Source of the DNA: a virus
Virus record (IMG/VR): IMGVR_UViG_3300025636_000001
Coordinates: 32,001 to 96,000 of that record
Strand: one strand, 5' to 3'
DNA length: 64,000 nt
A model generated the notes under the pieces. The model had not been told where the DNA came from, did no database searches, and worked only from the letters and a program-made list of their open reading frames with translations. Made by a program: the position numbers and the translations under genes. Positions within the stretch are counted from its first letter, which is position 1; each line of letters begins with the position of its first letter. Below are positions 1 to 58,974 of the stretch, piece by piece.

Positions 1-168
1 ATTTCTTACTCTTGCTTTTAAATCATCTCTGTATTGCATACCATCACTATTTACTTGATCAAATTTTTCTTTTTCTTTTTGTGTTTTATATCTTGTAGAT
101 ATAAACTGCCATATGCCTGTAGATCCAGCAACTGTGATCAAAGTTAATATTATTTGAGTGATATCCAT
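1..168 (-). CDS. Partial membrane-anchored protein (holin-like candidate); missing from the ORF track and truncated by the window start
   Basis: Manual translation from ATG at 168: MDITQIILTLITVAGSTGIWQFISTRYKTQKEKEKFDQVNSDGMQYRDDLKARVRN..., open to the edge. N-terminal hydrophobic helix then a charged segment; promoter-like motif upstream at 231-249. Confidence 0.7.
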   Translation of the reverse strand, partial: MDITQIILTLITVAGSTGIWQFISTRYKTQKEKEKFDQVNSDGMQYRDDLKARVRN

Positions 169-230: not shown

Positions 231-249
231 CTATATATAATATACAAAA
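231..249 (-). promoter_or_regulatory. Putative phage promoter motif TTTTGTATATTATATATAG
   Basis: The same motif recurs intergenically, oriented with the downstream gene, at several other sites in the window. Confidence 0.6.
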
Positions 250-3242: not shown

Positions 3243-3290
3243 AACTATCATTAAGACGTAAAAAGACTTTTAATGCTAGTTAAAACAAAC

Positions 3291-3329
3291 AAAGACCGGT
3301 CATATAATGTGGCTGGTCTTTCTTGTTTT
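3291..3329 (+). terminator. Intrinsic terminator after nrdA
   Basis: AAAGACCGGTCAT/GTGGCTGGTCTTT stem (with G-U pairs) followed by CTTGTTTT; a second imperfect hairpin lies at 3243-3281. Confidence 0.7.
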
Positions 3330-3342
3330 ACATTCTTAAAAG

Positions 3343-3359
3343 TTGTATATTATTATATA
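3343..3359 (+). promoter_or_regulatory. Putative phage promoter motif TTGTATATTATTATATA driving the two-component operon
   Basis: Same core TTGTATATTA as upstream of several structural genes; lies between the nrdA terminator and ATG 3389. Confidence 0.6.
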
Positions 3360-3388
3360 AATACTTATGTATATTTTAATATAATATT

Positions 3389-3589
3389 ATGAAAGAATTA
3401 CTTAATAGCATTACTGATACCCGTATGGTTTATCTTTTAATGTCAATTGTTTTATTGACAGGTTATTTTTTTCAATCATGGAGTGTAGTAATATTTGTAA
3501 CATTTATGTTAAACGTTGGTGTATGGACGGGGTTTTGTCCTAGCAAATGGTTCTTTGCTAAATGTGGTTTTAGAAAAGCTGATTTATAA
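3389..3589 (+). CDS. DUF2892/YgaP-like small membrane protein
   Basis: Two hydrophobic helices then TGFCP, the G-x-C-P hallmark of the family; stop overlaps the next ATG (TAATG). Confidence 0.7.
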   Translation: MKELLNSITDTRMVYLLMSIVLLTGYFFQSWSVVIFVTFMLNVGVWTGFCPSKWFFAKCGFRKADL

Positions 3590-4869
3590 TGAAAGCACTT
3601 TCAGGTTTATCAATTAACTCTAAAATATCTTTAGGAGTTGCTTTAGTTATCATGATGACATTCTTCATGGTGCAGACCTGTATTGTTTTTGGTTTATGTG
3701 AGCCTTCATTAGAATTAGCTAAATTTGGCTGGGGTTGTGTAGTGTTTTTCATGCCCCCTTTTTTTAAAGTTGTGCAAGAATTTGTCAGCAACATTAAAAG
3801 AAAAGAAGAAAATATAGATGTTTATTTAAATGCTATTGATAAATCTAATCTAGTTGTTATACTGAACATTGATGGTTATGTTTTAGAAGCAAATCAAAAC
3901 TTTTGCTCAGTAATGGGGTATCAAGAAAAAGATTTAAAAAATAAGCTTCACAAAAATTTAGTACCTAAAGAATATAATGAAAGTAAAGAATACTTTAACT
4001 TTTGGAAAACATTAAAAGAAGGTAAAAGTATAACTGGTGAATTTGAACGTATAGGGAAAAATGGAAAAAGTGTTTGGTTATTTGGTAATTATACCCCTAT
4101 TCAAAATAAAGCAGGTAAATATACTAGGGTCTTAAAAATAGCAACTGATATAACAACTCAACATGAGGCTGAGATAATAGTAAATCAAAAGAATACTTAT
4201 TTAGAATATGCAGCAAAAATCATACGTCATGATATGCACAGTGGTATCAATACTTACTTACCAAGAGGAATTAAGTCCCTTAACCGCAGACTTAGTCAAG
4301 AAAATATTAAAGATCTAAAAATAAGTGCTCCTTTAAAATTAATAAGTGATGGTTTAGATCATACACAAAAAGTTTATAAGGGTGTATACGAGTTTACAAA
4401 TCTTGTTAAAGAGAATGCACAGCTTACCACTGAACAAAATGATGTAACTGAAATACTAAAAGATTATCTAAGACTAACAGCTTACAAAAACAGCGTTATC
4501 TTATCTGATGACTTACCTAAAACATTGGAAATAAATAGAGCTTTATTTTGCACAGCTGTAGATAATTTTATTAGAAATGGATTAAAGTATAATGATAGTG
4601 GTACAAAATGGGTTAAGATTTATCTTGAATCAAAAATTATAAATAGCAAAACAAAAAACTTTATTGTTATTGAAGATAATGGTAGAGGTATTACAGGTGA
4701 AGAATTTACAAAATTATCAAAACCATACATACGTAAAGAAGATCAAAGTGAAACTGGAACTGGATTAGGATTAAATATTTCTATTGCAATTTTAGAAGAG
4801 CATGGGTTTAAAGTTCACGCAGAAAAAAAACAAAAAGATAACGGTACAAAAATATATATAAGGTTATGA
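3589..4869 (+). CDS. Membrane-bound PAS/PAC sensor histidine kinase
   Basis: Two N-terminal TM helices; PAS/PAC (ANQNFCSVMGY..FWKTL..GEFER..WLFGNYTPI..IATDIT); H-box IRHDM (H214); N-box DNFIRNGLKYN; G1 IEDNGRGI; G2 GTGLGL. Confidence 0.92.
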   Translation: MKALSGLSINSKISLGVALVIMMTFFMVQTCIVFGLCEPSLELAKFGWGCVVFFMPPFFKVVQEFVSNIKRKEENIDVYLNAIDKSNLVVILNIDGYVLEANQNFCSVMGYQEKDLKNKLHKNLVPKEYNESKEYFNFWKTLKEGKSITGEFERIGKNGKSVWLFGNYTPIQNKAGKYTRVLKIATDITTQHEAEIIVNQKNTYLEYAAKIIRHDMHSGINTYLPRGIKSLNRRLSQENIKDLKISAPLKLISDGLDHTQKVYKGVYEFTNLVKENAQLTTEQNDVTEILKDYLRLTAYKNSVILSDDLPKTLEINRALFCTAVDNFIRNGLKYNDSGTKWVKIYLESKIINSKTKNFIVIEDNGRGITGEEFTKLSKPYIRKEDQSETGTGLGLNISIAILEEHGFKVHAEKKQKDNGTKIYIRL

Positions 4870-5300
4870 TAAATACATTGATGTTGATTGATGATGAGAA
4901 TCTCTTTCATTTAGTGTTTGAAGATGCATGTTCAATGCTAGATATAGCATTATCAATACAATCACTAGACAGTAGTGATGAAGCAGATAAAATGTTTAAA
5001 AGTTGGTTTCCAGATAATGATGAGGAAAAACCTGAGTGTGTCTTTGTGGATCTAAATATCATTGGTTCTAGCTTTGATGGCATAGAAATGATTAGGAAAA
5101 TAAATCAGGATTATGGTAATGGTTGTGTTATTGGAATTATTTCTAGTAGTTCAGATCAAGAAGAAATTGAGAAAGCCAAAGCAGTAGGTGCTCAGTTTTG
5201 GATTATTAAGTCTGATGACATTGAACCAAGACTGGAAGAATTTCATAAAGATTATGAAGGGTATGTTAGTAAAACAAATCCTTTCAAAGTATACAGATGA
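4866..5300 (+). CDS. Single-domain (CheY-like) response regulator
   Basis: LIDDE acidic pocket, VFVDLN (D62 phosphoacceptor), ISSS, FWIIK; no output domain; ATGA overlap with the kinase. Confidence 0.92.
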   Translation: MINTLMLIDDENLFHLVFEDACSMLDIALSIQSLDSSDEADKMFKSWFPDNDEEKPECVFVDLNIIGSSFDGIEMIRKINQDYGNGCVIGIISSSSDQEEIEKAKAVGAQFWIIKSDDIEPRLEEFHKDYEGYVSKTNPFKVYR

Positions 5301-5869
5301 TAAGCTCTAAACATACAATCAAAGAAGCTTTAGAAATAGCTAAAAATAAAAAAGTTTACATAGAAGGAAACTTTACAAAGCTATTAAATGAAACTTCTGA
5401 TAAAGAAGTTAAAAGCTACATTGATTTATGTAAAGAAAAAGATTTACAGAACAGAAAGAAAAGATTACAAATAACTAAACAAGTTCAAAAGCAAAATAAA
5501 GATCTTGAGTCAGCAGCTAAAGAAAATGAAAAACTTGTTGTTGATTTGAAAAAGGCTTTAAAAGAAACTGAATCAGCAAAAAAAACTGCTGAGGATAGTA
5601 TGGATAAAGCTTTACAGGATCTAGAGGTTGTTCAAAAGAAAAGTCAATTTGAACTTATTGGTACTATTGTAAGAGTTGCTTTATGGGTTATAGGTGGTGT
5701 TGGTATACTAACAACCTTGATGTATGCAGTAGCTTTAATGAATGATGTAGATACTCAGATAATCGGTAGTACCTGGTCTAATATGTTTGGTATACTCCTA
5801 ACTAATGCTTTCTCTATTGTAGGGACCATTATGGGTGTAAAGTATGCCACAGATAATACAAAGGAATAA
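5297..5869 (+). CDS. Coiled-coil protein with two C-terminal TM helices (holin/effector candidate)
   Basis: About 115 aa of charged helical sequence, then IVRVALWVIGGVGILTTLMYAVAL and MFGILLTNAFSIVGTIMGV; ATGA overlap. Confidence 0.75.
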   Translation: MISSKHTIKEALEIAKNKKVYIEGNFTKLLNETSDKEVKSYIDLCKEKDLQNRKKRLQITKQVQKQNKDLESAAKENEKLVVDLKKALKETESAKKTAEDSMDKALQDLEVVQKKSQFELIGTIVRVALWVIGGVGILTTLMYAVALMNDVDTQIIGSTWSNMFGILLTNAFSIVGTIMGVKYATDNTKE

Positions 5870-6453
5870 TGAAAAAGTATTTTAAGAATTTACAGACACT
5901 GCTTATAGTAGTTCTGGTTGTAGTTATATTACTAATGAGAAGTTGTTCTGGTAAGTCAGAACCTGTTGAACCTGTTATTATAACAAACGTTGAAGTCAAG
6001 TATGACACCATCACTGAATATGTACCTGAGTACATCCCTAAGCTTATCACAAAAGTGGAGTATGTACATGACACAGTAGTTAGAACACAACCTATTGATA
6101 CAGTAGCAATACTTAAAGATTATTTTGCTACATATGTATATGAAGATCGTCAAAAGTTAGATAGTCTAAACATAACTATCAAAGACTCGGTAACTCAAAA
6201 CAAAATTATATCAAGGTCTATAGCTTATGATCTTATATATCCCACTACTACTATTACAAAAGAAATCTACTTAAACAATAGAGAGTTTTATTATGGTCTA
6301 AACCTTAACGGTAAATCAGATCAACTAAACTACTTAGGTGGAAGTCTTTTATATAGAACTAAAAGCAAGCAAATATATAGTATTGGTTTAGGTGTTAATC
6401 AAAACATGGAACCTGTTATATCAGCCGGATTATACTGGAAAATAGGAAAATAA
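5869..6453 (+). CDS. Envelope protein, spanin-like candidate
   Basis: N-terminal basic plus hydrophobic anchor ending in MRSC; extended (Y/V)DT(I/V) stalk; C-terminal amphipathic beta-strands ending SAGLYWKIGK; TAATG overlap. Confidence 0.6.
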   Translation: MKKYFKNLQTLLIVVLVVVILLMRSCSGKSEPVEPVIITNVEVKYDTITEYVPEYIPKLITKVEYVHDTVVRTQPIDTVAILKDYFATYVYEDRQKLDSLNITIKDSVTQNKIISRSIAYDLIYPTTTITKEIYLNNREFYYGLNLNGKSDQLNYLGGSLLYRTKSKQIYSIGLGVNQNMEPVISAGLYWKIGK

Positions 6454-6484
6454 AAAAGGAAGACTTTTACATCTCCCTCTTTAG
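6452..6484. terminator. Terminator between the convergent blocks
   Basis: On the - strand AGGGAGA-TGTAAAAG-TCTTCCT followed by a T-run; lies between the stops at 6453 and 6485. Confidence 0.6.
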
Positions 6485-9400
6485 TTATTTTATAAAGAAA
6501 TTATTTAGCTGAATGTAATCTTGCCACTTCTTAATTGTATAGAGAATTGGTACTATATCCATAAATTCTTTACCTACTTTTAATTTACCGGCTCTTCTAC
6601 CTCTCTGATAGTATACGTCTTTATTATAATACCAGTCATCTTCATTACCTGTGACCATGTATTTAATACCGCTTGTTCCATAATCCCAAGATGCATCTAT
6701 AAGCCCTCCCATTTCACCAAGAGTTCTTGTTATAGCAAAGGGGCTATCAAAGAATTCAACAGTTTGTGTTAAACCACTAGAACTAGGTACAAATATTAAT
6801 AATTCTTTTTTAGTTCTATCTGCTTGATAGCGTGCAATATTTTTAAGCTTCTTTACAAAATCACTATCATCATCATCACTTAATAGTATTGAATCAAATA
6901 GATTAATTATTAAAAATGTTAAACCAATTGTAGCTAACTCACCATTAAATCTATGAACATTTAATATTTTGTTTTCTATTCTTTGTCTTTCAGATTCACT
7001 TATTTCTTTATCATTATTTAACCTTGCTATACTGTCTATGTAACCTTGAACAGTCATACCTTTATTAAGATCCCCTTTAAGTTTACCTAGACCAGCTTCA
7101 CTCATGTACTTTACAAATGACCACCAAGATCTAATCCTACCTTCCATCCAACCTAAGTTTTCATCAAAATATTCCCTTTGATATCTCGCTCTTATTGCTG
7201 GAGCAACCCACTTATGAAATTGAAATAATAATTTACCAACATAAAGTTGTTGTAAAACAACCTTATCTTCAGCAGCATAGTTACCATGAATTTGTTTATT
7301 TACTTCACGTATTTTCATACGCAGATCATATCTAAACTTATCATTGTATTCACCAACCTCATCATAAAGCATATTACCTTGCTCATCTTTTTTAATGTTG
7401 TTACCTTTTAGAGCTTGCTTAAATGTTGGAATTTCTTTTTTAGGTTTTATTATTGTTGTAAATCCTTCTTTTAATTCTAATTTTTGATCTCCACTAAATT
7501 CAAATGCATCATATAAACTTAAGATTTCACCAGTGTCTTTGTTTAATATATAGGTGTCCATTACTATTGCCATACCTATTTTAGTTTGAACATTATATTC
7601 AGCTGCATCCTGTAACAAATATCCAAACTCTTTAAATCGGTCATAATAACTTTTACCTGTTCTATCAGTAACACCACCAGATTCCCTTAAATCTCCTTTA
7701 TTATCCATCATTCTAAAGAGATCAACAAAACCTTCAAACTTACTTGTTGGTTCATATGGATCATACCTACCGCTACTTCTAACAGCAGTAACATCATGGG
7801 CTGTTCTTCTAATAAAATCTGGAATAGCTCTGGTATTAAATTCTTTACTTGCTCTTATATAAGCATCTCTTGCAAAGAATCTTTGACCCATTACTTCAAT
7901 ACCATTATTAACCCTTGCAATAACGTAGTTATTAAAGTTACCAAAAACGTTAAATGCAACATAACTTAAAGAAGTCCATCCTAAAACGCCATCAATGATT
8001 TTTTCAAATTGATTTTTAGTCATATCATCTGAATCATAGAATACCATTTCCATGAATTTTTTTGCAGCCTCTTTAGTATTACGTGCTTTTTGATCAGCAG
8101 GTGTATCATCAACACTACGACCACCTGTTAATTTTTTAGCTTTTCTTGCAACTTTCTTAACTGTTGTAACTCTTTTACTATATTCTCTTTTATTAATTAC
8201 TTCTTGAAAAGCCAACATTGTTTCTTCAACACCACTCATGACTTCATAGTTTTCAGCCATTGCAGCGTATTTCATTATAGCTTCCGTCAAATCATAACTT
8301 AACTCTTCTGCTGCAGGTTTAGACCTTACGGCAACCAGTTCAGATTCCAGTTTTTGTAATTTTTTTAAATAGCTTTGAGAAGTTGCAGCTGTTGAATTAC
8401 CATATTGATTTTTAAGCTCAGCTATTTTATTTTCAATAGCTTCAACATCTTCAGCTTGTCTAAGATTTCCAGTATACATTATTGGTATACCATCAACCAT
8501 TTCACCCTTTTCATTTACATTAACCTTTGTAAGTCTTGTTGTTGTAGAAAAGAATTCTTTAGTATTAGTTTTAGTTGCTGCCCAAAGAGCTTTAGCACCT
8601 GTAGGTTTATTTTTAGCATAACTTGAGAAATTACCACGGACTCTTGGTGATTTACCATACATGTAACTACCAACACCATCAGGTAACTTATCATTAAGAT
8701 CTTTCCACAATGCAGTATAAGCTATATAATAAGCTTTTCTAGCTGACGCTAATGCATCAGTTTGTGGAGCATCCATTATAGCTCTATACTTATCACTAGT
8801 CATAATCTGACCTGACTTAGATGTTTCTAAAATTTCTACATATTCTTTTTTAGGAAAAACACCTTCTTTCTCTACAACCTTTCCTGTAAATACACCATCT
8901 TTCATTATAGCTTGGTTGTACTTAACTACATTATAATATTTATTATAGTACATCTCTTGTTCTTTCCCTTTAGAACCATTGTATACCCAGCGTCCATTAT
9001 CTAGTTGTATTTCATTTTTATTTCTTGCATTTATAAACTCAGAATTATATGTATGATATTCACCAGTTTCAGTTGTACCATCATCATTTACAACTTCAGC
9101 TTGCATAAACTTTCTATACTCTTGTTTCTTTCTATATAACTCTTGATTAAAAGCAATATCTTCAGGTTTAGCTTTTGATATATCACCAATAGGTCTATAC
9201 ATAATCATCTCACCGTTAGAGTCACGTAGTGATTTATATAAAGCATTAAACTTATCATAGTATTGAGGACCTATTTTTTTAACTAGCTCCCCTGTATGTA
9301 CACCATTTTCATCAAGTTCAATCATGAACTCATAAATTTCTTTAGCATTTTTACCTGGAGATAATTTAGCTAACCTTGATGCATACAAAACAAAAGACTT

Positions 9401-12247
9401 TCTTTCTTCAATTCTATCTAGAACTTCTTGTCTTTTAGCATGCCACATCTTTTTCATTAATGCAATTAAAGTGTCTTCTGCTGTATTTGTATCTCTCGTG
9501 TAATAATCCGTAAGGCTCATATCTTCAATTACTGAATGAAATAAATCTTCAAATGGATCAACAACTTCACCTGTTATTGGATCCACATAAGGAGCAAAGT
9601 CTTTACTTGAATTTTCTCTAACAATGGCCTTAACATGTGTAAACAAAGCTTCATCAATAACACTTTGTTTTTCTGAAGTAGATTCACCTAATCTATTTAA
9701 TGTATTTTGTATCTGAAGTATGATATCCTTTTGTGTTGTATTTAAACCCGCAATGGAAGGAAGCTTATATAAACCTTCAAAGGTTTTAATAAAGTTTTCA
9801 TAGTTTCTTGCTCTTGTTAAATACAAAGGATTAGAAGCATTATCTTTATTTAAAAGATATTTTTCATACTCCTCTAATTCTTTTTTAATATCAAGAAGTA
9901 ATTCTGTAAATACTCTAGGTGCTTCTCCTGTCTCTGTTAGTGCAATTGTTGTTAATGCAATGTTTGAACTTAATCTTTCAACAGCATCTTCTTTAGTTCT
10001 ATCCATATAAACAGCAGACTTTACTGTTTCTATAACATCACGTCTTGTTGTAAGACTTTTTCTGTATTCTTTAATAGCACCTATATACATGTTTTGTTCC
10101 AACCCACCAAACTCTGTTGGGCCAGCTAAATCCATGTTCTTTATATCACCAAGATCTTGACCATCAAATTTTTCAATAGCAGTATCTGTTTCATTTAGAA
10201 GCTTTTCTAATTCTGCTTTAGATTGTTTGTTTACTTTTTTAGGTACTAAGGCATTAACATAAGGCTCATTTTGATTTAGTGGATGAAATACAACATTCTC
10301 TATTTCAAAATTTCCATTAAACTTTTGATCTTTCCCTTTACCTGTTATATCCACCCATAAGTGATGAGTGCTTGCACCTTGTTCACTTGCATCAACTTCA
10401 TAACCCATATTTTCAAGCATCCTTCTATATAAGTTTACTTGAAGATTGTGTTTTTGTTTTGTTGATAGAGTCTTTACACCGTAAGCTTTTAGTAAAGAGT
10501 CATCTTTTAAATCCCACTTATTATTATACTTACCATCTTCACTTGTTGATAATCTATTCTTACTTGTCTTTAAATCTAAAATCTTCAGCTTTCCCTGGGG
10601 TGTTATTGCAAGTAAATCTATAGTTCCTGCAATATTAACACCGTCTGCATTTTCACCATGCACTACAACTTGAGGAACTAAAATATCTCCATCATTGGTT
10701 ATTGCTTTTATATAACCGTCCATTGAATAGTAAGCTCTTGTTAGCTGTTCATCTGTTAAGATTTGCATACCCGCTTCTTTCACATCAGCTAGGGATTTTC
10801 CTAATACTATAGCTTCTGCTATATTATCAAAGTCATTACCTACAGCTAAATTAAGTTCTACATCATCAAGATTTTCCATCTTACCACCTATAGCAGTTGT
10901 TGATGAAACATATTCAATTGATAAATCTTTTAGATTATAGTATGTATGATTCTTCTCATTTAGAATTACTATGTCATCATTGTTTCCAACATCTTTTTTA
11001 CCAGCACTAAATGTAGGAGTCTCTCCCTTTCTTTGTTGTGCAGCATGAAATAGTTTATCTAAAACAATTTTTTGAGCGTCATTAGCATTTCTTCTTATCT
11101 GATCAAGTGCTGTTTGTTTTTCTTCAGATAATGAATATCTAACTTTAGAATCTACTTTCTTCTCTAATATAAATTGCAATTCACTTGTATTCAAAAGTTT
11201 TGCAACATCAGATAAGTTTGATCCGGGTTTTATTTTATCTACTTTAAGTTTAGCAGTACCACCAGTGTATGCTTCATGAAGATTTTTAATTACACCTAAG
11301 AACCAATTTAGGAACTCATTGATTTTATCTTTAAAAGATTTAGTGGGTGTGTTCTCAAATTCATTTGAAAAATATCTTGTAAGAGCTTGTGTTACCAACT
11401 CTAGTTCTCTGTGTCTTTCACTAAACTTTCTATACTTGGTATTATAAGCTTCATCTATTTCCTGCTTTAATATAGGAAAGTTTGCAGCAGCTTCATCGTA
11501 AAGAGTTTTAAACAGCTCTGGGTTGTCTACATACACAGCATCAATAAAAGGGTGTAAGACCTCTTCTATAGCTATATCATGTGTCACTTTACCTTTAATT
11601 AAAACAGCAGTTTGATTTACATAAAAACTTCTTACCTGTGAAAAAGGTGTTTTGTTTTTTTGATATGCTGGTAATGTATCATACAAGTTCTCTGCTTCTT
11701 TAGCAGATAAGATCTTAATTGCTAAACCTGGGAACATTTTTTGTATGTGACTTAACACATCTACTGTATGTGTACCTGCAGCTCTTCTGCTTTTTGGTAA
11801 AACATCCACAGGCATTAAAGCATCTTCATTTATAGAGATCCTTCTTGACCTCCTTGTTATAGTATCATTTATAACATCTCTTGGTATTTTATTTTTATCT
11901 AAGTATCCAAGTAATCTATTATAATTAATCTTTAGACTTTTAGGGTTACCAACCATTTCACCATCTCTTGTGTTGTTGAGATAGTAACCACCATACTTTT
12001 CAGAATAATGTATAATTTTATTTCTAACAAGGTTGGCAATCAAAGCATCTGTAAAAGCCTTTGTCTTTAATGAAAAAGACATATTAAGTTCTTCTTGCAC
12101 TTGCTTTGCTTGCTCTACCGTAGGAAACTCTTCTGAGTTATTTAATGATTGCCATTTTTCAATTAAACTATCAACAACCATATTGTCTTTAAACTCCTCA
12201 CTTAAAGACTGATACTCAGGTAAATTTTTATTATAACACTTAGCCAT
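6485..12247 (-). CDS. Giant virion cargo protein with PD-(D/E)xK nuclease domain and degenerate zincin-like motif
   Basis: 1920 aa; IAGTIDLL..KILDLKTS..HNLQVNLY (about 10428-10630); IEEVLHPF (11552-11566); adjacent to the vRNAP gene as in crAss-like phages. Confidence 0.8.
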   Translation of the reverse strand: MAKCYNKNLPEYQSLSEEFKDNMVVDSLIEKWQSLNNSEEFPTVEQAKQVQEELNMSFSLKTKAFTDALIANLVRNKIIHYSEKYGGYYLNNTRDGEMVGNPKSLKINYNRLLGYLDKNKIPRDVINDTITRRSRRISINEDALMPVDVLPKSRRAAGTHTVDVLSHIQKMFPGLAIKILSAKEAENLYDTLPAYQKNKTPFSQVRSFYVNQTAVLIKGKVTHDIAIEEVLHPFIDAVYVDNPELFKTLYDEAAANFPILKQEIDEAYNTKYRKFSERHRELELVTQALTRYFSNEFENTPTKSFKDKINEFLNWFLGVIKNLHEAYTGGTAKLKVDKIKPGSNLSDVAKLLNTSELQFILEKKVDSKVRYSLSEEKQTALDQIRRNANDAQKIVLDKLFHAAQQRKGETPTFSAGKKDVGNNDDIVILNEKNHTYYNLKDLSIEYVSSTTAIGGKMENLDDVELNLAVGNDFDNIAEAIVLGKSLADVKEAGMQILTDEQLTRAYYSMDGYIKAITNDGDILVPQVVVHGENADGVNIAGTIDLLAITPQGKLKILDLKTSKNRLSTSEDGKYNNKWDLKDDSLLKAYGVKTLSTKQKHNLQVNLYRRMLENMGYEVDASEQGASTHHLWVDITGKGKDQKFNGNFEIENVVFHPLNQNEPYVNALVPKKVNKQSKAELEKLLNETDTAIEKFDGQDLGDIKNMDLAGPTEFGGLEQNMYIGAIKEYRKSLTTRRDVIETVKSAVYMDRTKEDAVERLSSNIALTTIALTETGEAPRVFTELLLDIKKELEEYEKYLLNKDNASNPLYLTRARNYENFIKTFEGLYKLPSIAGLNTTQKDIILQIQNTLNRLGESTSEKQSVIDEALFTHVKAIVRENSSKDFAPYVDPITGEVVDPFEDLFHSVIEDMSLTDYYTRDTNTAEDTLIALMKKMWHAKRQEVLDRIEERKSFVLYASRLAKLSPGKNAKEIYEFMIELDENGVHTGELVKKIGPQYYDKFNALYKSLRDSNGEMIMYRPIGDISKAKPEDIAFNQELYRKKQEYRKFMQAEVVNDDGTTETGEYHTYNSEFINARNKNEIQLDNGRWVYNGSKGKEQEMYYNKYYNVVKYNQAIMKDGVFTGKVVEKEGVFPKKEYVEILETSKSGQIMTSDKYRAIMDAPQTDALASARKAYYIAYTALWKDLNDKLPDGVGSYMYGKSPRVRGNFSSYAKNKPTGAKALWAATKTNTKEFFSTTTRLTKVNVNEKGEMVDGIPIMYTGNLRQAEDVEAIENKIAELKNQYGNSTAATSQSYLKKLQKLESELVAVRSKPAAEELSYDLTEAIMKYAAMAENYEVMSGVEETMLAFQEVINKREYSKRVTTVKKVARKAKKLTGGRSVDDTPADQKARNTKEAAKKFMEMVFYDSDDMTKNQFEKIIDGVLGWTSLSYVAFNVFGNFNNYVIARVNNGIEVMGQRFFARDAYIRASKEFNTRAIPDFIRRTAHDVTAVRSSGRYDPYEPTSKFEGFVDLFRMMDNKGDLRESGGVTDRTGKSYYDRFKEFGYLLQDAAEYNVQTKIGMAIVMDTYILNKDTGEILSLYDAFEFSGDQKLELKEGFTTIIKPKKEIPTFKQALKGNNIKKDEQGNMLYDEVGEYNDKFRYDLRMKIREVNKQIHGNYAAEDKVVLQQLYVGKLLFQFHKWVAPAIRARYQREYFDENLGWMEGRIRSWWSFVKYMSEAGLGKLKGDLNKGMTVQGYIDSIARLNNDKEISESERQRIENKILNVHRFNGELATIGLTFLIINLFDSILLSDDDDSDFVKKLKNIARYQADRTKKELLIFVPSSSGLTQTVEFFDSPFAITRTLGEMGGLIDASWDYGTSGIKYMVTGNEDDWYYNKDVYYQRGRRAGKLKVGKEFMDIVPILYTIKKWQDYIQLNNFFIK

Positions 12248-12254
12248 TATTTAT

Positions 12255-15200
12255 TTATTTTAAGTAACACTTTCTCAAGTGCTCTTCATATTGTGATTCT
12301 TCTGTGAATGCGCTCTTCTTAAATGATTCTTTAAGAGAATTTAAATCTGATATGTTAACACCATCTTTTTTCATTTTTTGGATTGCTCCAGGTGTTGTTT
12401 TTAAATCATCCAGCAATATACTAAAATTATCTGTCAAGCCTAAATTCATAGCTGATAATTCTTCAACATCAAATAAATCTAATTGAGCATTTTCAACCTC
12501 ACTAGCTTGTTGTGTTGGTTGTTTAGATATAAAAGCGGTAAGTTTATCATTCACTTCCTCTGAAACCTCTGCTGGTATATCTGCTTGAGTTAGATCTGCA
12601 ATATTTTTTCCTTCAACTTCAATACCTTTTTCTGTAGCAGTTCTTGTTAAGTTGTTTAAACTACCAAACTCTGCAATATTATCAGGCATTGTAATGTCAT
12701 CTGGAATTGTATCCATATTAAAATCAACATCAATTGAATCAAACCTATCAGAAACATACAAGTCTTTTGTTTTAGGTCTTTGGAAGTTATCATTATTAAA
12801 GATAAACCCTATTGCATTTTGGTAATAAGAACCTTCTAAATCAAACCTTTCATAAACGCCTTCTGTTAATACTGAACCATCTATGTTATCAACAGGAACT
12901 TCTAAATTTTTATTACCCCCTTTAACTAGTATGTAGTATTGTTTTTGAACACCTATTGGATTTTTAGTTTCTCTAGAAATGAATTTAGGGAAAACTATAG
13001 CAGGTAATCCATCTTCTTCTACAGCTCTAGATACTCTAATTATGTCTTTGTTATCTTTATCAACATTTACTTTGTACCCATTGTCTTCATTAAAAACAAA
13101 ATAATCAGGTTTTATATTTTTAGAAAATGCAGCAGATCTACCATAATTATTTATAAAATCTTTGCTCATATCTTCTAAGCTTTCACCAAACACCTTTTCA
13201 AATTCAACTTGACCTTTGAATGCTTTGAATACTTCTGTACTAGAAGATAAATATTTTTCAAGACCAAATGGAGTGATTGCTTCTAATAGACTACCAGCAG
13301 CTAGACTTAAACCATCCTTAGCCATTATATAATGAAGTATGTTAACTGCCTCTTTTCTTGTTTTAATATCACCATATAAAGCTTGGAAACCATTTTGAAT
13401 TCTTACCTTCTCATTATCACTGAGCTTTCCAAAGCCTCGTGTAGTTGCAATATTCATCCCAGTTTTATTATCTTCTGCATTTACAGTTTTTGTAAATACA
13501 AAATAATCTAGGAAATAATTATCTCCAACATTAAAGTTACTCTTAAGATCTTTAATTACAGTAGTAATATTAAAGTCACTGTTTTCACTTGGATACAAAA
13601 ATTCATTTGATAATGATGCACCAACAAGAGAACCTGCTTCTCTATCAAATAGATCTTTTATGTAAGCTTTTATTGTAAAGTAAGACAATATATCTTTCTG
13701 AACTTGTGCTTTTAGTTTAGCACCTTCAGGTCCAAAAGAAACATTAGCATAAGACATTACACCACTAAAAATACGTTTAAAAGCAGGACTTTGAGAAGTG
13801 AATACTTCCGGTAAAACATTTCTTTTAAAGTCTTCAAATACTCTTATGTTTTGACCTATGTAATGACGTACAGGTTTATCTTTTGTTAAGTCAGTACTAA
13901 ATGCATTTCTTAAATCAAATATTAATTCTTTTGTTCTGATCTTATCTTTCATTTCTGAATTAGATGTATATAAGCCAGCTTTTTCTATTGACTCATCTAC
14001 ACTTAACAAAGAAGAAAAATCTTTACCAAAACCTTTATTTAATTGAAATATAGCTTGAAGATTATCAACTTCTTTTGTTAATCTATCCACCTTTAATACT
14101 TCAAGAAGTAAACCTAATAAAGCTCCGGGCTTTTCATTACCTTCTATACCTTCACTTAAAGTTTTAGTTGTTACTCTTTCAGGTTTAACACCTCCAGCAT
14201 TTAAATCTTTAATTATTTCTCTGATCTGACCAACAGGACTCTCAGTTTCTAAAGCTTCTCTTATGGCTTTTACATTTACAAGCATTGTTGCTTGCTCCAA
14301 AGGAACACCAAATGAGACCATGCTTAATACATACTTAATACCTTTTTTATTATATCCAAGTTTACTTAATAAGCGTTCTTTAGCATCATCTGTTGCAAGT
14401 GTTATTAAGTTGGATAATACATACTGTGTTCTTTGCAACTCACCATTAGAGTCTATTTCATTTACAAATCTATTATAAGATTTCCCATCTACTTGTAATT
14501 CAAACCATTCTGAAGAAATATTCATTTCTCTTAAAAAGTTTATAATTGTAGCTGGTGGTACAACACCTCCAATAAGGCCTGAGTTTTCTTTAACATTTTT
14601 ATGACTATAGAACTGACCAACTAGATTATCAATAGCAATACCCTCATCTTTAGTGTACGTTTTAAGTATACTAAATCTTTCACTTAAATCTTGCCATACT
14701 TGTTTAACAGCCTCAATGTCTGCGGGCTGATAAGATAAAGGAACAGAATCATCTTTACTTTCAGTAAGTTTAGTGTTACCAACAAGAGTATACTTTAGAT
14801 CAACTAGTTTATTAGTGATTGCAGCTTTGTACGGTTCTACATCATTATCCTTAATATAATCTTTATACTCTTTTTGAGTTAAAGGTAAACCTAACATGGT
14901 TGCACCATCTATTGCTTCTGAAGTATATCCAAGTTCTAATAGTTCTTTTATCTCAGCTAATGACTTAGTCTCAACCTCAGATGAAAGACCACCATCTTCA
15001 TACTTTGAATAAGCTTCATTTAAGTTGCTGCCTTTTTCTGCCACCTTTTTATTAGTATACTTAATGTAATCAGCATATCCTTCTTCTCCCTTTCTGCTAC
15101 CATATTCAATGAATTTACCGTCTTGGTAATACCATTCTTTAATTGCAGCATATACTTTATCAATATCAAAATCCGCTCCTGATATTTTAATTAAGTCTTC

Positions 15201-18200
15201 AGGGAATATTGCAGTTGATCCATAATATACAGGTAAGAAATCAACAACCTTTGAAGCCATTGAAGAGTGTTTATCTTGTGTAGGTATCCTAACAGCAAAC
15301 ATCTTAGCTACAGAATCAGGTACATCTTTAATATTTTTATTTTCTAAATAACGCATCACTTCTTCATGATGAGCAGGCATTAGTGTTTCAGCATATCTGA
15401 CATTAGTTGGCACCCAAGTTGAAGGATCATTTGGATTAACCATATTATATTCTTTCATGTCATAACGCAATCTATCTAAAACAACAATTGGTTTAGAAGG
15501 ATCAGATTCAAGTTGTTGTTGTGCTGATTGTAAATCTTCAGCATTAGTTATATCTAATAACTTTTGACCATTATATTGGTTAGAGTTTTTTCTTCTAATA
15601 ACTCTTTGTTTATCTGGTCTACCCGTCTCATCAAATGAATATATCTCTCTAATAACTGGAACACCAAAGTCAGACATCAATGCTAAAGTAACACCTGGTA
15701 CTTTTTGAGACAATACTTTTTTACTAAAGTATGCCATAAAGAACTGTTCAAACTTCTGACTGATTATAGGATTATTTAATTCATATTTAGGTTTACCATC
15801 TTCTTCTGTAAAGAATTCTATTTCTTTACTACTTGCCGCAGATGATTTTAAGTTAGCCTGAGCTGTTTTAATAAAAGAATATAAATTAGGCTCAATATTC
15901 ATTTGCTCTAATACTTCTTCATCTAAGTGAGGTATTAAATCAAATATTAAATTCTTTTTACCAATATATTCAAAATCCAATCCTGCAGCTGTAAGCTTAT
16001 GATATTCACTTACAACATCAGCCATTGGCAGTTCAACACCATCAATAACAACTTTAAAGTCTTTATCATTTATATCTTGTTCAGAAGATATAATTGTTTT
16101 AATTTGACTAGGATCTGTTATTAAAAGTTTGTTTGAAGGGTTTACCATTTGTCTACCAAAATCTTTGGCGTCTAACAAGGTAACATGCTCTTCATTTAAA
16201 ACCATTGTTTCAGCAGTCATGCTTTCATTGTCAATGACATTTTGCTTTAACATTTTAACAGCTGACTCAGGAGCACCTATAGCAATCTTATCACCATTTT
16301 GAGACTCCCACCTTTCCATGTTTTCACGTAAGTTGTGCAACCTTTCCATTCCTACTTTAGCTACCCACGCACCTTCTTCATTTTGATAAGAGGTAAGTTC
16401 TTTTGTTAAGACAACTGTAGATGTTTTGATAAATGTTTGACCATTACCAAAAACATATTTTTTAGAATTTAATGGAGCATGCTTAGAGAATTTTTTTAAG
16501 TAATTATTAAACCACTCATTATCCACACTTTCCCCAGCTTCAATTTTATCATACATTTTAGCTAAGTCACTATTTAAGCTACCTAAACCAAATGCAGAAT
16601 AACGTGCACCTTTGATTGTTTGATATGATTGTGCATCAGCTTTATCACCACCATCTTCTGTTGAAGGATCTGTGAATGTAAACAATCCAATAGATTTATC
16701 ACCAAGTGTATGAGATATACCAAAAGAATCATCCTTTGGTAAGAAATCAAAAGCAATAGAATCATGAGCTGCGTTTTGCATCTTAGCTCTTTTTATTGGA
16801 TCTACTACAGCATCTTTAAATAGTTTAGCTTCTTCACCCAATATTAGTTCATTGATTGCCATTGTATTCAACCAGTTGCTAATAAAGATCTGAGCAAGGT
16901 TTGCTTTTTCATTCTTTCTAAATACATTAAGCTTTTCCATACTGTTTGAAGCTGCTTCTGTATCTGGGAATATACCTTTTGCGTGTTGTGATATACCTTG
17001 TAATTTTCCAGATGCTAGATCTTGGAACTCTTTTATATAATCTTTTAATTTATTATTAAGCTCTGTCTTGTATTCTTTGCTAAATACGTCATCAAAGTTT
17101 TTACCTTCAGCTGCTGCTTTAATTAATTCATTCTGAGTTTCTTCACTTATAAGTTCAGCACCCTTAAAGAATTTAAATCCACGTCCATTCTTACTATCAT
17201 TATAACCTTTTATGTTACCAGGTCCATTTAAATCATATTCTTGATTATTTTTCTGAATAACATTATATTCTGTTTTAAGTCTGTTAACAAACTGATCAAA
17301 TGCTTCAGGTGTCAATACAACATATTTACCATCTGAACTTAACTTAACACTTTTTATAATAGGTAGTCTTGTACTATCACCTGTGTTAGATGATTCAATT
17401 ATTCTTATAAATACTGGTGCTAATGCAACATTAGCTGCAGTTTCTACTTTGTTTGATTTTGTATTAAACCCTTCAAAGTAATTATTTATAAGGTTAGTTA
17501 CAAACTCAACAGAAGTAAACTTACCATACTTCTTACCTTGTATAGATCTTCTTGATAAGTCATCAGCATCTTGGAGATCCATTGACTCCATGTTTTCTGC
17601 AAGCATGTTTGAACCAGCCGTTCTAATTAACTGAAGTTGTTTGGATGCTGACAATTCTAAGAAAGCTTCTGAATTAAGTAAAGTATTATCAGGGAACTCT
17701 GATTGAAGTTTTCTAATAACCTCTTGATCAGATAACTGAATCATTCTTCTTGAATGTAGAGTTTGATTTTGATGTGCATATATTAGATTTCTTTCAGGAT
17801 CTTCAAACACAGTATTACCAACCGTCTCATCAAACTCTGCATTTCCTAATGCTATTTGTTTCAGCCTAGAGCTAATACCTTTTTCGGCATCATCAATAAA
17901 TAAATTCTCAGGTAGTGGTTTTGCTGTTTCTTTATCCTTACCTGTTAATTTGTTATTAATTAAAACTAAATCTTCTTTAGTAAGCAACCTTGCATTTCTA
18001 CCAATATCTTTTAGTGTTTCTTGATACTTAGTTAATTTACCAGATATAGCATTAGCTATACTAATTTCTATATAAAGAGGACTGAGTTTTATACCTAACT
18101 GATCATTAATAAGTTTAGAATACATTAAAGATTTAGCTCCTAGTTCTTTATTTGTAATTCTAGTTCTCTTCTCAGAGAAATTAGTCAAGTCTTTTAAAAG

Positions 18201-21200
18201 CATGTTTACACCAGAAACTGCTTCTCTTATACTAGCATTATCATTTCTAAATATTTCAAACTTATCATTAAATAACTTTTTCCAATAATCTATTTGAGCA
18301 TTAGCAGCATCCCTATTGGAAGCTGATATAATTCTAACTTTACCTGTGTTAGGGTCAGTTAATTGGAAAATGTAATCAAATCTAGCATTCTTAAATGTTG
18401 TCATAAATTGATTAAACAACATTGAGTTATCTATTGTATTTGGTATCTGACCTGTTTCTTGAAATTCATTTATATCAATACCTGTTACTCTAAATAATTC
18501 ATCTATTACAGCAGCCGTGTTTTCATTTCTACGTGAGAAGTAATACATCTTCTCTAACATTTTTGCATCACTGGTTTCATTCATACCAGCTAACATTAGA
18601 CCGTTATAAACATCTACATGATTTACAGGAACTCTTATTGGTGTACCATCCATCAATTCAACGTTACCAAACATATCTTTAGATTGTATGGATACACCTG
18701 CTATAAAGGTTCTTACTTCTTTTGTAGCTGAGTTATAACCACCGGTCTGATTAGCATCTTTAGTATAGTCACCAACCTTTCTTGATCCATAGTCATCCTC
18801 ATCTTCTTCAAGCTGCTCATCCATCTCATCAAACTTGAGATTTAAAATATCAAGATATTGAACAACAGATTCTTTGACAGCTTTACCATCTTGAAGATTA
18901 AGTGCTTCATTTAGTTGTTCAACAGTATCTAATTCAACGTCAGAAAGACTTGCATAGATATCTCTCTCTGAATCATAAAGATCTGCAAAATCAATAATGA
19001 TAGTATCTAATAACTCTTCATCTTGCAACTCACTATAATCTGATTGACCTCTTTTTAAAACAAATATCTGTCCAATCATTCTTGTAAGAATATCTGCTTT
19101 TGAAGGATCTAAATATTTAGCTGATTTTAATTTATTACCTCTTATAATTTTATAAGGTATTGCTTTAAATGCATCTAGGGCTACACCAGACTCTAAAGAT
19201 CTTGTGTATTGATTATCTAATATTTGACCACCTCTGTATTTACCTGCATCAATTCTTTCATAAAATAAATCAAGTTCATTTTTTCTGAATGATTTTAAAA
19301 CAGACTTAATCCACTCAACAACACGGTTAAAGAAACTCTTAATTGCTGAGCTAGTTTTAGTACTTCTTGGGTTTGTTTTAAAAGCTTGGAATTGATCTGC
19401 CATATACTCTTCCAAGTATTCACGTTCTAAAGCTTGTTTAGATAGTGCTCTATACTTTGGATGTCTATTTGCAAATCTGCTAATGTCTTCTTGTAAAGCT
19501 TCAGTTGTTTTAAACTTCTTTCTTACTTCATCTTTAGCAAGTTTTAATAATCCGTTTTGCTCTTCAGTTGTAAGTAACATTCTAAATATAGCATGGAAAG
19601 ATTCATGATAACCTATACCATTAGACGGACCCGTATAAATAGTACCTTCTATATTAAGACCACCAGCAATATTTCTCAAAGCCATTGTAAACTGACCTAC
19701 AGTTGTACCTGTACTTTTAAGACGTGACTTAATCTCAGATAAATCTTTGATCTTAATAAAATCAGGTAAGTTCTGAGCTGCCCATTCTAAGAACTCATCT
19801 ATAGACTCTTCTTTCTGTAAAGACTCAGAAGGATCTAATATCTTAAATGCACTCTCATCAGTACTTCTTCTTTCTAGTTCATCCAGTTGATCCATCAAGC
19901 TGACATACAACTCAGAATTTTTTCTAAGAGTTGCTTGATGTTGACCGGTTCTTTTAGCTTCAGCAGCTATACGTCTCTTCTCTTTTTTTATTGCAGCTTC
20001 TACTTCAGCTATTTCTTCCTCTAAAGATTTAGATTCTTCAACAGGTTTTTGATATGATTTACTCATGATAAGCAATTCAAGCTCATCACTATTCATTTTT
20101 AATATCTCTTGTTCTCTAGCATCTAATGAGTCTCTACCTTCTTGGACTACTTTATTTACAATAGCAACTTTTATTGATCTAGGTAGATCTTTAAAGTCAT
20201 TACTTTTAAATTCATTATAACGCTCATCACTCATTTCTTGCAAGCTGTTATCTTCTTGTAATAACTCTTCTGCACGTTTTTGCTCTAATATTTTATTAAT
20301 CTCCGCTACCTTATCTTGGAATATAGCCTTCTCTTCTATTGTAAGAGAGTTAGGGTTATTAACATATTTGTTTGCTATCCTTTCTAAAGTTTCTTGTGAT
20401 ACAATACCTTTAGCAACAAACTGAGTATATTCATCAGACTGTGTGTTAACTGGTTTTGATGGTTGTACCATTTCAAGACCCTTAACCATTTCATCAGTTG
20501 TATCAAGCTTTACTCTAACACCTTTAAGAACACGTGGATCTAAGTTTGTTTTGGTGCTACTAAGCATTTGTTGTAAAGATGCCGATAATGGGAAAGTTTC
20601 TCTTATATTATTGTCCCCAAAGCTAAATGGATATTCAACTGTTTTATTAAACTTTATAATCTTTTCATTTTTATTAAGCAATGAATATAAAGTTAAAATG
20701 TCATCAGGGTTTAATCCATCTAGTTCAGATGCTTTAAAACTTTCACTTACTGTAAAACCTGTTTCATCTACTTTAAATCTTAAATAAATATCTCCTTTTG
20801 ATGAAACGTTTAAATCTAAATATGATTTTACTGATGGATTAGTTGCACTGAAAAATTTATTATTAAATTGCTTATTCCAATCAAGTAAAGACATGCTCTT
20901 TTTTGTAGCACCAACCTTAGTAGTTGTTTGTGGTGCTGATTCTAAAGCAGCTAATTCTGCATCATATTTAGCATTAATTTTGTTAGTATTTGTTACACCT
21001 TCTTTAAAATTATCTAATTCATTTAATAATGCAAACAATTCATCTCCTAAAAATTCACCTCCAAAAGGTAAAAGTTGAGTTAGTTTATTTTTATATTTAG
21101 AATCAACTACCTTATCTCCATTTACAAAAGACATTTTTAATATTTTGTTTTCTAAATTTTCTTTTGTAGGAATATTATTTAACTCTTCTTGCCTTCTTTT

Positions 21201-50341: not shown

Positions 50342-50360
50342 CTATACATAATATACAAAA
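50342..50360 (-). promoter_or_regulatory. Putative phage promoter motif TTTTGTATATTATGTATAG
   Basis: Recurrent motif upstream of ATG 50304. Confidence 0.6.
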
Positions 50361-57603: not shown

Positions 57604-57624
57604 CTATATATATAATATACAAAA
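57604..57624 (-). promoter_or_regulatory. Putative phage promoter motif TTTTGTATATTATATATATAG
   Basis: Recurrent motif between a terminator and ATG 57574. Confidence 0.65.
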
Positions 57625-58959: not shown

Positions 58960-58974
58960 ATATATAATATACAA
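58960..58974 (-). promoter_or_regulatory. Putative phage promoter motif TTGTATATTATATAT
   Basis: Recurrent motif, immediately followed by hairpin TGTGC-AATGAC-GCACA (58945-58960). Confidence 0.6.

Follow-up and report, generated by a model that had tools for sequence, protein, structure and literature searches.

The two-component system LytSR of Firmicutes controls the holin/antiholin-like lrgAB and cidAB by transcription via a LytTR output, while LiaFSR and BceRS-AB, which serve in bacterial envelope stress, combine intramembrane-sensing kinases and accessory membrane proteins with DNA-binding regulators. A receiver may also act on its own, as does CheY by binding FliM. In phages, the timing of lysis sets burst size and fitness, and among the few known cases of signal-dependent timing the classic one is T4 lysis inhibition, which involves the holin T and the antiholins RI and RIII and in which holin triggering is delayed on a sensed signal (PMC11413866). 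Here, we analyzed a gene cassette in a 64,000-nucleotide stretch of phage DNA, called the window throughout, which is one strand of bases 32001-96000 of the 116,877-bp IMG/VR virus record IMGVR_UViG_3300025636_000001. The cassette encodes a small two-transmembrane (two-TM) peptide (p66), a histidine kinase, a stand-alone receiver, a 190-aa coiled-coil/two-TM protein (p190) and a further protein, p194 (Table 1). Our results suggest, with a probability that we put at about 55%, a phage phosphorelay leading from the kinase to the receiver, to the head of p190 and on to a membrane hairpin of the lysis machinery, by which holin triggering would be tuned. A sequence-only reading of this DNA had described a two-component operon joined to lysis-like genes; the phage two-component system was upheld, a two-TM output appears likely and the link to lysis gained comparative backing, while the five-gene unit, the spanin and a DUF2892 assignment had to be given up.

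The evidence for a conserved unit comes from 90 distinct IMG/VR loci with a p190 gene (L002-L016 and L036-L112, without L097 and L106, which represent the contigs of L007 and L016). These were scored by tblastn (E<=1e-5) with a small panel of window and neighbour proteins as queries; many of the loci are close kin, and the counts do not represent independent events. The receiver gene was found directly 5' of p190 at every one of the 85 loci offering 500 bp or more of room, and at all 79 loci with room for it the kinase core was located 5' of p190. Likewise, the receiver was encoded beside p190 in 12 out of 12 further loci on contigs of up to 322 kb. At the 65 loci with full room, a PAS domain was present in only 36 and p66 in 46, and p194 followed p190 in just 3 of the 90 loci (L016, L042 and L057), all of which belong to the type of the phage studied here. 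The proposed conservation of all five genes therefore did not hold: since kinase, receiver and p190 are constant, p66 and PAS variable and p194 rare, the unit consists of the former three, with p66 and the PAS domain as options and p194 as a passenger. Furthermore, the receivers are ~70-91% identical across loci whose ribonucleotide reductase (RNR) alpha subunits are ~38% identical, a difference indicating that the cassette has moved between phage backbones as a unit. Contigs with a p190 relative are numerous in IMG/VR (>392 plus 180).

The AlphaFold2 (AF2) model of p190 (predicted local distance difference test, pLDDT, 87.6) comprises a small head, a helix spanning residues 36-148 that continues into the first TM helix, and a second TM helix at residues 154-188, which confirms the coiled-coil/two-TM layout initially read from the sequence. 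The predicted topology is N-in/C-in with a short charged tail, and the second TM helix, which contains many small and polar residues, is the best-conserved part of the protein (mean column identity 0.80). The family splits into 6943 clusters at 90% identity and is covered by 198 representatives at 50%. It looks virus-only, because none of its members contains a Pfam domain, its Atlas neighbours are 100% viral, and the contigs that carry it measure at most a few hundred kb. A comparison of the p190 model with BFVD returned one significant match, an uncharacterised member of the same family. Among the genomes of 185,579 species no isolate bacterial genome gave a match to p190, and the only hits were eight contigs of metagenome-assembled genomes (MAGs; L028-L035, 3-89 kb) that carry the cassette or a fusion form and are labelled as eight different phyla, which are probably mis-binned phage DNA and point to no reliable host.

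The strongest evidence for a link to lysis comes from exchanges of domains. Four of these MAG contigs (L031-L034) carry PAS-like stretches beside the p190 hairpin, with neither a receiver nor a kinase core. In L031 and L034 a single open reading frame (ORF) of ~370-385 aa consists of PAS-PAS, a coiled coil and the p190 hairpin and is part of a lysis cassette: the L031 fusion lies between the gene for an 82-aa two-TM protein and genes for a GH19 protein (3.9e-6), a Phage_holin_4_1 protein (2e-6) and a 120-aa TM and coiled-coil protein, and the L034 fusion is followed by genes for a 93-aa two-TM protein, a PG_binding_1 protein and a Phage_holin_4_1 protein (1e-11). The PAS-PAS fusion was found on 180 IMG/VR contigs, the best 80 of which, a single clade with 83-91% identity to the query, were scored. 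Among these best 80 of 180, receiver and kinase core were each absent (0/80), while 74 of 80 had an endolysin-type gene no more than 3.5 kb away. Where the contig extended for 2.5 kb or more downstream, this was true of 64 out of 65 loci, and at least 12 arrangements with four endolysin types were represented. In addition, the library of 50%-identity representatives contained a GAF-hairpin protein (P0145; GAF 2.5e-17) and a PAS-hairpin protein (P0174). Since the hairpin is found with a receiver-linked head, with PAS-PAS, with PAS or with GAF, it represents a constant C-terminal module with interchangeable cytoplasmic inputs, and because the head occurs only where a receiver is encoded next door, we take p190 as the receiver's target and its hairpin as the output. 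A more general reading, which we hold tentatively and rate at slightly under an even chance, would be a phage class of signal-gated lysis switch in which a two-TM output hairpin is combined with interchangeable inputs, either a phospho-receiver or a fused PAS/GAF, so that the energy, redox or second-messenger state of the host would set holin triggering. In two further representatives, P0220 and P0257, the p190 head is found N-terminal to a HisKA-HATPase_c core, a position typical of input domains, in a soluble kinase of 337-342 aa, which hints that the head may be a reusable input domain of a second signalling tier; P0220 as an IMG/VR query returned ordinary kinase-receiver-p190 cassettes only.

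The connection to lysis is derived from the genes surrounding the cassette in related phages. In L007 five genes on the same strand come next after the cassette and encode a 176-aa protein, a 79-aa two-TM protein (c9), a Peptidase_M15_3 protein (1.4e-22), a Phage_holin_4_1 protein (c4, 4.9e-8) and a TM and coiled-coil protein of ~360-430 aa (c5). L008 encodes a PG_binding_1+Amidase_2 protein at the position of the M15 peptidase of L007, and the genes c4 and c5, which are neighbours in L008, enclose the cassette between them in L003/L004 and L010-L012. An endolysin-type or Phage_holin_4_1 gene was found beside or around the cassette in 13 of the first 15 related loci, the endolysin types being Peptidase_M15_3, PG_binding_1+Amidase_2 and GH19-like. 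Across the 90 loci, an endolysin-type or Pfam-holin-type gene was located within 3.5 kb on the same strand in 55, or in 61 if two-TM holin-like genes are counted as well, numbers that come from the small tblastn panel and are without a formal null; among the 30 loci that extend 3 kb or more to each side, the corresponding values were 16 and 20. These comparisons support a link to lysis that is frequent among the relatives of the cassette and not universal.

The catalytic motifs of the proposed relay look functional. In the kinase, Pfam detected PAS (6e-14) and HATPase_c (1.2e-14; 55.1 bits against a cut-off of 26.4), and residues 206-422 align with HK853 (3dge, 3.7e-10, phmmer; alignment shown for 6azr), which places H214 in the H-box region. 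The H box RHDMHSGINTY and the motifs NGLKYN, DNGxG and GLGLN are invariant across 11 aligned kinases, so that the earlier description as a PAS histidine kinase with intact H, N and G boxes is borne out for the N, G1 and G2 boxes and for an invariant H214 in the predicted H box, while 4 of these 11 kinases have no PAS domain. The closest solved matches of residues 84-199 are the PAS domains of MmoS (3ewk, 6e-13) and Aer (8dik, 6e-9), which we take to bind FAD (flavin adenine dinucleotide) as flavin sensors of redox or energy state. However, with PAS missing in 29 of 65 related kinases this domain cannot be the sole input, and a kinase with two TM helices and hardly any outer loop would have to sense within the membrane, via p66 or via PAS. 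The 66-aa p66 has a conserved GFCPSKW motif, and its relatives, which are 53-92% identical, are encoded immediately 5' of the kinase; it may therefore be an accessory membrane partner of the kinase that is present in some relatives only. Its description as DUF2892-like was backed by no Pfam match at E<=0.1, and a six-frame genome search with DUF2892 (PF11127) stayed empty even at E<=10, whereas 13 of 14 control genomes matched; the sole lead to this family is an Atlas neighbour (0.89), 10% of whose members carry PF11127. Some relatives encode two tandem kinases (L015:4408-6147 and 6745-8181), and in L014 (66-1043) the N-terminal part of the kinase is a different coiled-coil/TM region; p66 was not found at either locus. 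These variants suggest that the input end of the kinase is swappable.

The receiver matches Pfam Response_reg PF00072 with 34.1 bits (cut-off 30.2) over residues 6-116 only. D9, D10, D62, S93 and K115 do not vary among 21 sequences, and neither do E120, P121, R122, L123, E124, F126, D129, Y130, Y133, F140 and Y143 of an extension at about residues 117-144. All of the 120 homologues listed are 135-148 aa long and contain PF00072 only. Thus, the view of this protein as a receiver without an output domain remains valid: it has the full catalytic quintet and no second Pfam domain. A regulon of the LytSR type was considered and rejected on the ground that the receiver has no LytTR DNA-binding output, and without any output domain its control must be post-translational. 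A complex prediction for the receiver with p190 residues 1-117 gave a score of 0.01 (mark 0.32), which weighs neither for nor against binding.

Table 1. Features of the cassette and its flanks; positions refer to the window for genes and nucleic acid elements, and to residues for protein parts.
Feature	Position	Strand	Basis or remark
Intrinsic terminator	3291-3321	+	14-pair stem, then T run
Promoter-like 11-mer TTGTATATTAT	3343-3353	+	Ends 35 nt 5' of the p66 ATG
All copies of TTGTATATTAT in the window	237-247, 3343-3353, 50348-50358, 57612-57622, 58964-58974		
p66	3389-3589	+	ORF
Histidine kinase	3589-4869	+	ORF, PAS and HATPase_c
Kinase, two TM helices, almost no outer loop	residues about 1-75		
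Kinase, cytoplasmic PAS domain, optional	residues 88-192		Pfam
Kinase, predicted dimerization and histidine phosphotransfer (DHp) domain with H214			HK853 alignment, invariant H box
Kinase, catalytic domain	residues 321-426		Pfam HATPase_c
Stand-alone receiver, 144 aa	4866-5300	+	ORF, PF00072
p190	5297-5869	+	ORF, alignment and AF2 model
p190, N-terminal head	residues 1-45		
p190, coiled-coil signalling helix			Length variable
p190, conserved two-TM hairpin	residues 118-188		
p194	5869-6453	+	ORF
Hairpin, terminator of the converging 1920-aa gene	6453-6482	-	Folding

The five genes are indeed joined by overlaps on the + strand, as was first noted (TAATG at 3589, ATGA at 4866, ATGA at 5297 and TAATG at 5869). 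The claim that the operon is flanked by terminators stood for its upstream side and failed for its downstream side. The upstream hairpin is strong (-23.6 kcal/mol, z -8.2; none of 200 shuffles folded as well) and closes the upstream RNR genes and insulates the cassette. The downstream hairpin folds well on the - strand only (-14.2 kcal/mol, z -2.0, compared to -7 kcal/mol, z 0.16, on the + strand) and thus ends the converging 1920-aa gene of the opposite strand. The 11-mer TTGTATATTAT occurs five times in the window against 0.27 expected, a number reached in 0 of 100 shuffles. The four copies outside the cassette are intergenic, lie on the - strand and are directed at downstream genes, and more copies are present elsewhere in the genome 5' of other - strand genes; the motif, often lengthened to TTGTATATTATATAT, is found in intergenic regions 35-68 nt 5' of start codons. 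It is common to the cassette, to structural genes and to a gene for a 103-aa TM and coiled-coil protein, and these counts and positions substantiate the earlier remark that the cassette shares a motif with structural genes. TTGTATATTAT is probably a late promoter, possibly one for a phage RNA polymerase, and its sharing with structural genes and the 103-aa protein gene makes late expression of the cassette plausible. In RNA library run X21 three contigs were identical to the window at 3374-3579, 3595-3789 and 4491-4643, and of two contigs in run X22, that at 3397-3599 was identical and that at 5773-6019 showed 5 differences. The region 3248-3371 was covered by no RNA-library contig, but was covered in a DNA run (contigs only). 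Since DNA can occur in such libraries, this is at most a weak hint at a transcription start just 3' of the motif.

In the phage studied here the lysis genes are scattered, as endolysin, holin-like gene and cassette lie apart. The probable endolysin is a 304-aa protein with an N-terminal PG_binding_1 domain and Amidase_2 (45.8 bits), encoded on the - strand at genome positions 104592-105506 (L027) with no membrane gene beside it; the earlier statement that the operon contains no endolysin was accordingly correct. About 4 kb upstream of the cassette, on the other strand, are the genes for a 108-aa c9-type two-TM protein (genome 31292-31618, - strand) and the above-mentioned 103-aa protein (genome 31857-32168, window 1-168, - strand), whose N-terminal TM helix and coiled coil give it an i-spanin-like layout and which matches phrog_2658 'hol-like chemotaxis' (5e-7). 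These two are this phage's best candidates for holin and spanin. Both are encoded behind a copy of TTGTATATTAT, the 103-aa gene first and the 108-aa gene second. Searches for Phage_holin_4_1 (PF05105) and phage lysozyme (PF00959) gave no match in the genome.

In the mechanism that we propose, the cassette would be transcribed late from the promoter-like motif shared with the structural genes. The kinase would respond to conditions in the membrane or cytoplasm of the infected cell, possibly to energy or redox state via PAS, autophosphorylate on H214 and pass the phosphoryl group to D62 of the receiver. The phospho-receiver would then bind the p190 head, probably by means of its conserved C-terminal extension, and the signal transmitted along the long helix would alter the packing of the hairpin in the inner membrane. 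As a result, the hairpin may delay or advance the triggering of a holin in an antiholin- or pro-holin-like manner, the likely holin in this phage being the c9-type protein encoded nearby; it is less likely that the hairpin itself would form the lesion. A modulator is favoured over a holin, given that one or two further holin-like genes are present in most cassettes anyway.

Accordingly, it seems unlikely that p190 is a gated holin or pinholin whose hairpin oligomerises into a lesion that the receiver, or a fused PAS/GAF, would hold closed or open. Some features of p190 would suit a holin, namely the two predicted TM helices in N-in/C-in orientation, the charged tail and the composition and conservation of the second TM helix; its gene is located in or beside lysis cassettes in many relatives (not in this phage), the genome has no Phage_holin_4_1 gene, and in three fusion loci with the arrangement 'PAS PAS p190 PGb_c40' the panel detected no other membrane gene beside the endolysin gene. 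However, other holin-like genes accompany it in most places, c9/tm2-type genes in 64 of 80 fusion loci and Phage_holin_4_1 in 44 of 90 kinase-type loci, and neither Pfam nor PHROGs placed p190 in a described holin family (E<=0.1). A cytoplasmic domain of ~115 aa, such as that of p190, is moreover unusual for a holin. It appears quite unlikely that the cassette controls another membrane function, such as superinfection exclusion, homeostasis of ions or the proton motive force, or envelope remodelling, in which case the cassette and the lysis genes would be close to each other merely as small membrane genes that share a location at a module boundary. Such a role would fit the position of the cassette apart from lysis genes in this phage and in other loci, its frequent location next to RNR genes and its movement between unrelated backbones in the manner of a moron, but would not account for the presence of the fusion near endolysin-type genes of four types in the great majority of the best 80 loci or for the position of the cassette between c4 and c5. 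We consider least probable that p190 is an input, that is, an accessory membrane sensor that controls the kinase by TM-TM contacts as LiaF and YycHI control their kinases, while the receiver acts elsewhere, possibly on a host protein by cross-talk or as a CheY-like decoy. The kinase is almost without an outer loop, and intramembrane-sensing kinases of this kind rely on accessory proteins; P0220 and P0257, in which the head precedes a kinase core, would also agree with an input function. Yet where the head is replaced by PAS/GAF, kinase and receiver are both gone, as would be expected if the sensors act on the hairpin but not if the hairpin served to feed a kinase, and the accessory role directly 5' of the kinase is already filled by p66.

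Several observations count against the phosphorelay to the lysis machinery that we prefer. No cultured phage carries the genes, as p190 and the receiver had no match among 50,697 GenBank phage records. The best PHROG match of p190 is 'hemolysin' (E 0.0075) rather than a holin or antiholin family, and no Pfam HisKA-type domain matched the kinase at E<=0.1. In this phage and its kin L016, L042 and L057 no lysis gene is present in or adjoining the operon and the endolysin gene is ~66 kb away; similarly, no lysis-type gene of the panel was detected near the cassette in 29 of 90 loci, or in 10 of the 30 with at least 3 kb on both sides, and large ORFs lie next to the cassette in L041 and L043. For the c40 domain the endolysin label stems solely from its fusion to PG_binding_1, the proximity counts carry the restrictions given with them, and the case for binding of the receiver to p190 is one of gene order and domain swaps.

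p194 has a single TM helix, an N-terminal anchor at residues 2-26 in which R24 and C26 hardly vary, and its C-terminal part is beta-rich; it may be an envelope protein that occupies, as a passenger, a variable slot 3' of p190. Its naming as spanin-like was not sustained, as there is neither a family match in Pfam or PHROGs nor a C-terminal TM helix. A u-spanin was rejected because p194 has no hydrophobic C-terminal segment and the residues L-M-R-S before C26 are unlike the lipobox consensus, and an o-spanin because of its length of 194 aa, the missing family match and the lack of an adjoining TM and coiled-coil gene. The AF2 model (pLDDT 69) had no match in the PDB by Foldseek at E<=0.001, and the best hit of a wide fold search (Z 5.0) was below a meaningful level; for residues 138-194, the last four predicted beta-strands, rows with Z 4-5, too weak to mean anything, included parts of outer-membrane beta-barrels such as trimeric autotransporter anchors, OmpA, OprF and PagL. 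Six phage loci have p194 just 5' of genes for a T4-type terminase and portal, and neither a kinase nor a receiver is encoded in the vicinity. In L036 the p194 slot holds the gene for a 143-aa protein (6576-7007) with a lipobox-like LTSC N-terminal and a hydrophobic C-terminal end, a u-spanin-like layout.

Additional genes were observed in and around the cassettes of relatives. L002-L004 and L009-L012 contain an extra gene between receiver and p190, either c22 (163-aa multi-TM protein with a C-terminal coiled coil) or c17 (acidic, 109 aa), and c16, which encodes a 176-aa soluble protein, follows p190 in many loci. In L036 the cassette is preceded by genes for a DUF5675 protein (8.6e-28; 3477-3929) and a 74-aa two-TM protein (3951-4175), and a 53-aa TM peptide is encoded between receiver and p190 (L036:5847-6008).

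The record, which was graded complete by CheckV, represents a phage with a major head protein (phrog_11589, 2e-32), other virion proteins, tail-fibre-like genes and giant - strand genes of up to 4701 aa. The closest match of the capsid protein in a cultured phage is 29% identical and comes from a Leptolyngbya phage, with weaker matches to a crAss-like phage and to Cellulophaga phages. No tRNA genes were found in the 64-kb window. The region gave no blastn match among the 50,697 phage records, and tblastn with the kinase against cultured phages returned partial matches to the PAS or catalytic domain only, with no record covered to at least 80%. The sequencing runs that contain the stretch are labelled marine or seawater metagenomes. 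On the 5' side of the cassette come the RNR beta and alpha genes and then the strong terminator, and on its 3' side two giant - strand genes, encoding proteins of 1920 aa (window 6485-12247) and 4701 aa (12255-26360), converge on it; for the 1920-aa protein, the L016 counterpart is 82% identical and the sole domain match, to PD-(D/E)XK, is faint (E 0.002).

If the proposed relay is correct, very abundant uncultured marine phages carry a modular sensor-to-membrane switch in or near their lysis genes. Host physiology would then feed into the latent period and hence into viral lysis rates in the sea, and two-component systems would include a new type of output, in which a receiver acts post-translationally on a membrane hairpin. 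As the parts of the cassette are small and modular, they are also attractive as controllable lysis devices. A literature search limited to openly available article texts brought up no report of two-component genes within the lysis cassette of a phage. Both signal-regulated phage lysis and two-component signalling are known kinds of systems, and judged from the genes it is the output module that would be new.

Among the known systems, LytSR-lrgAB may be regarded as the closest in parts and T4 lysis inhibition as the closest analogue in function. LytSR resembles the cassette in that it connects a kinase and its receiver with holin-like membrane proteins and lysis, but it is bacterial and has a multi-TM LytS sensor and a LytTR output, whereas the phage kinase has two TM helices with or without PAS and its receiver no output domain. 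In this latter respect the receiver is similar to CheY, which is likewise a single domain of ~120-145 aa with the full catalytic quintet and an output by partner binding, predicted in our case. It differs from CheY in its proposed partner, a virus-only membrane protein, in its conserved extension of ~28 aa and in having no chemotaxis genes nearby. The two-TM kinase with a minimal outer loop and a small membrane protein (p66) encoded beside it recalls LiaFSR and BceRS-AB; in contrast to these, p66 is optional (46/65), the system is viral and there is no DNA-binding regulator. T4 lysis inhibition shares with the proposed switch a dedicated membrane-associated regulator that is encoded beside the holin or apart from it (PMC11413866). 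However, superinfection is sensed by T4 in the periplasm through direct protein binding, with no kinase, receiver or phosphorylation, and RI is a secreted or anchored periplasmic protein, while in the cassette the sensors are predicted to be cytoplasmic or intramembrane and the regulator to be a two-TM hairpin. The cassette, if it works as proposed, would thus represent a widespread marine counterpart of T4 lysis inhibition.

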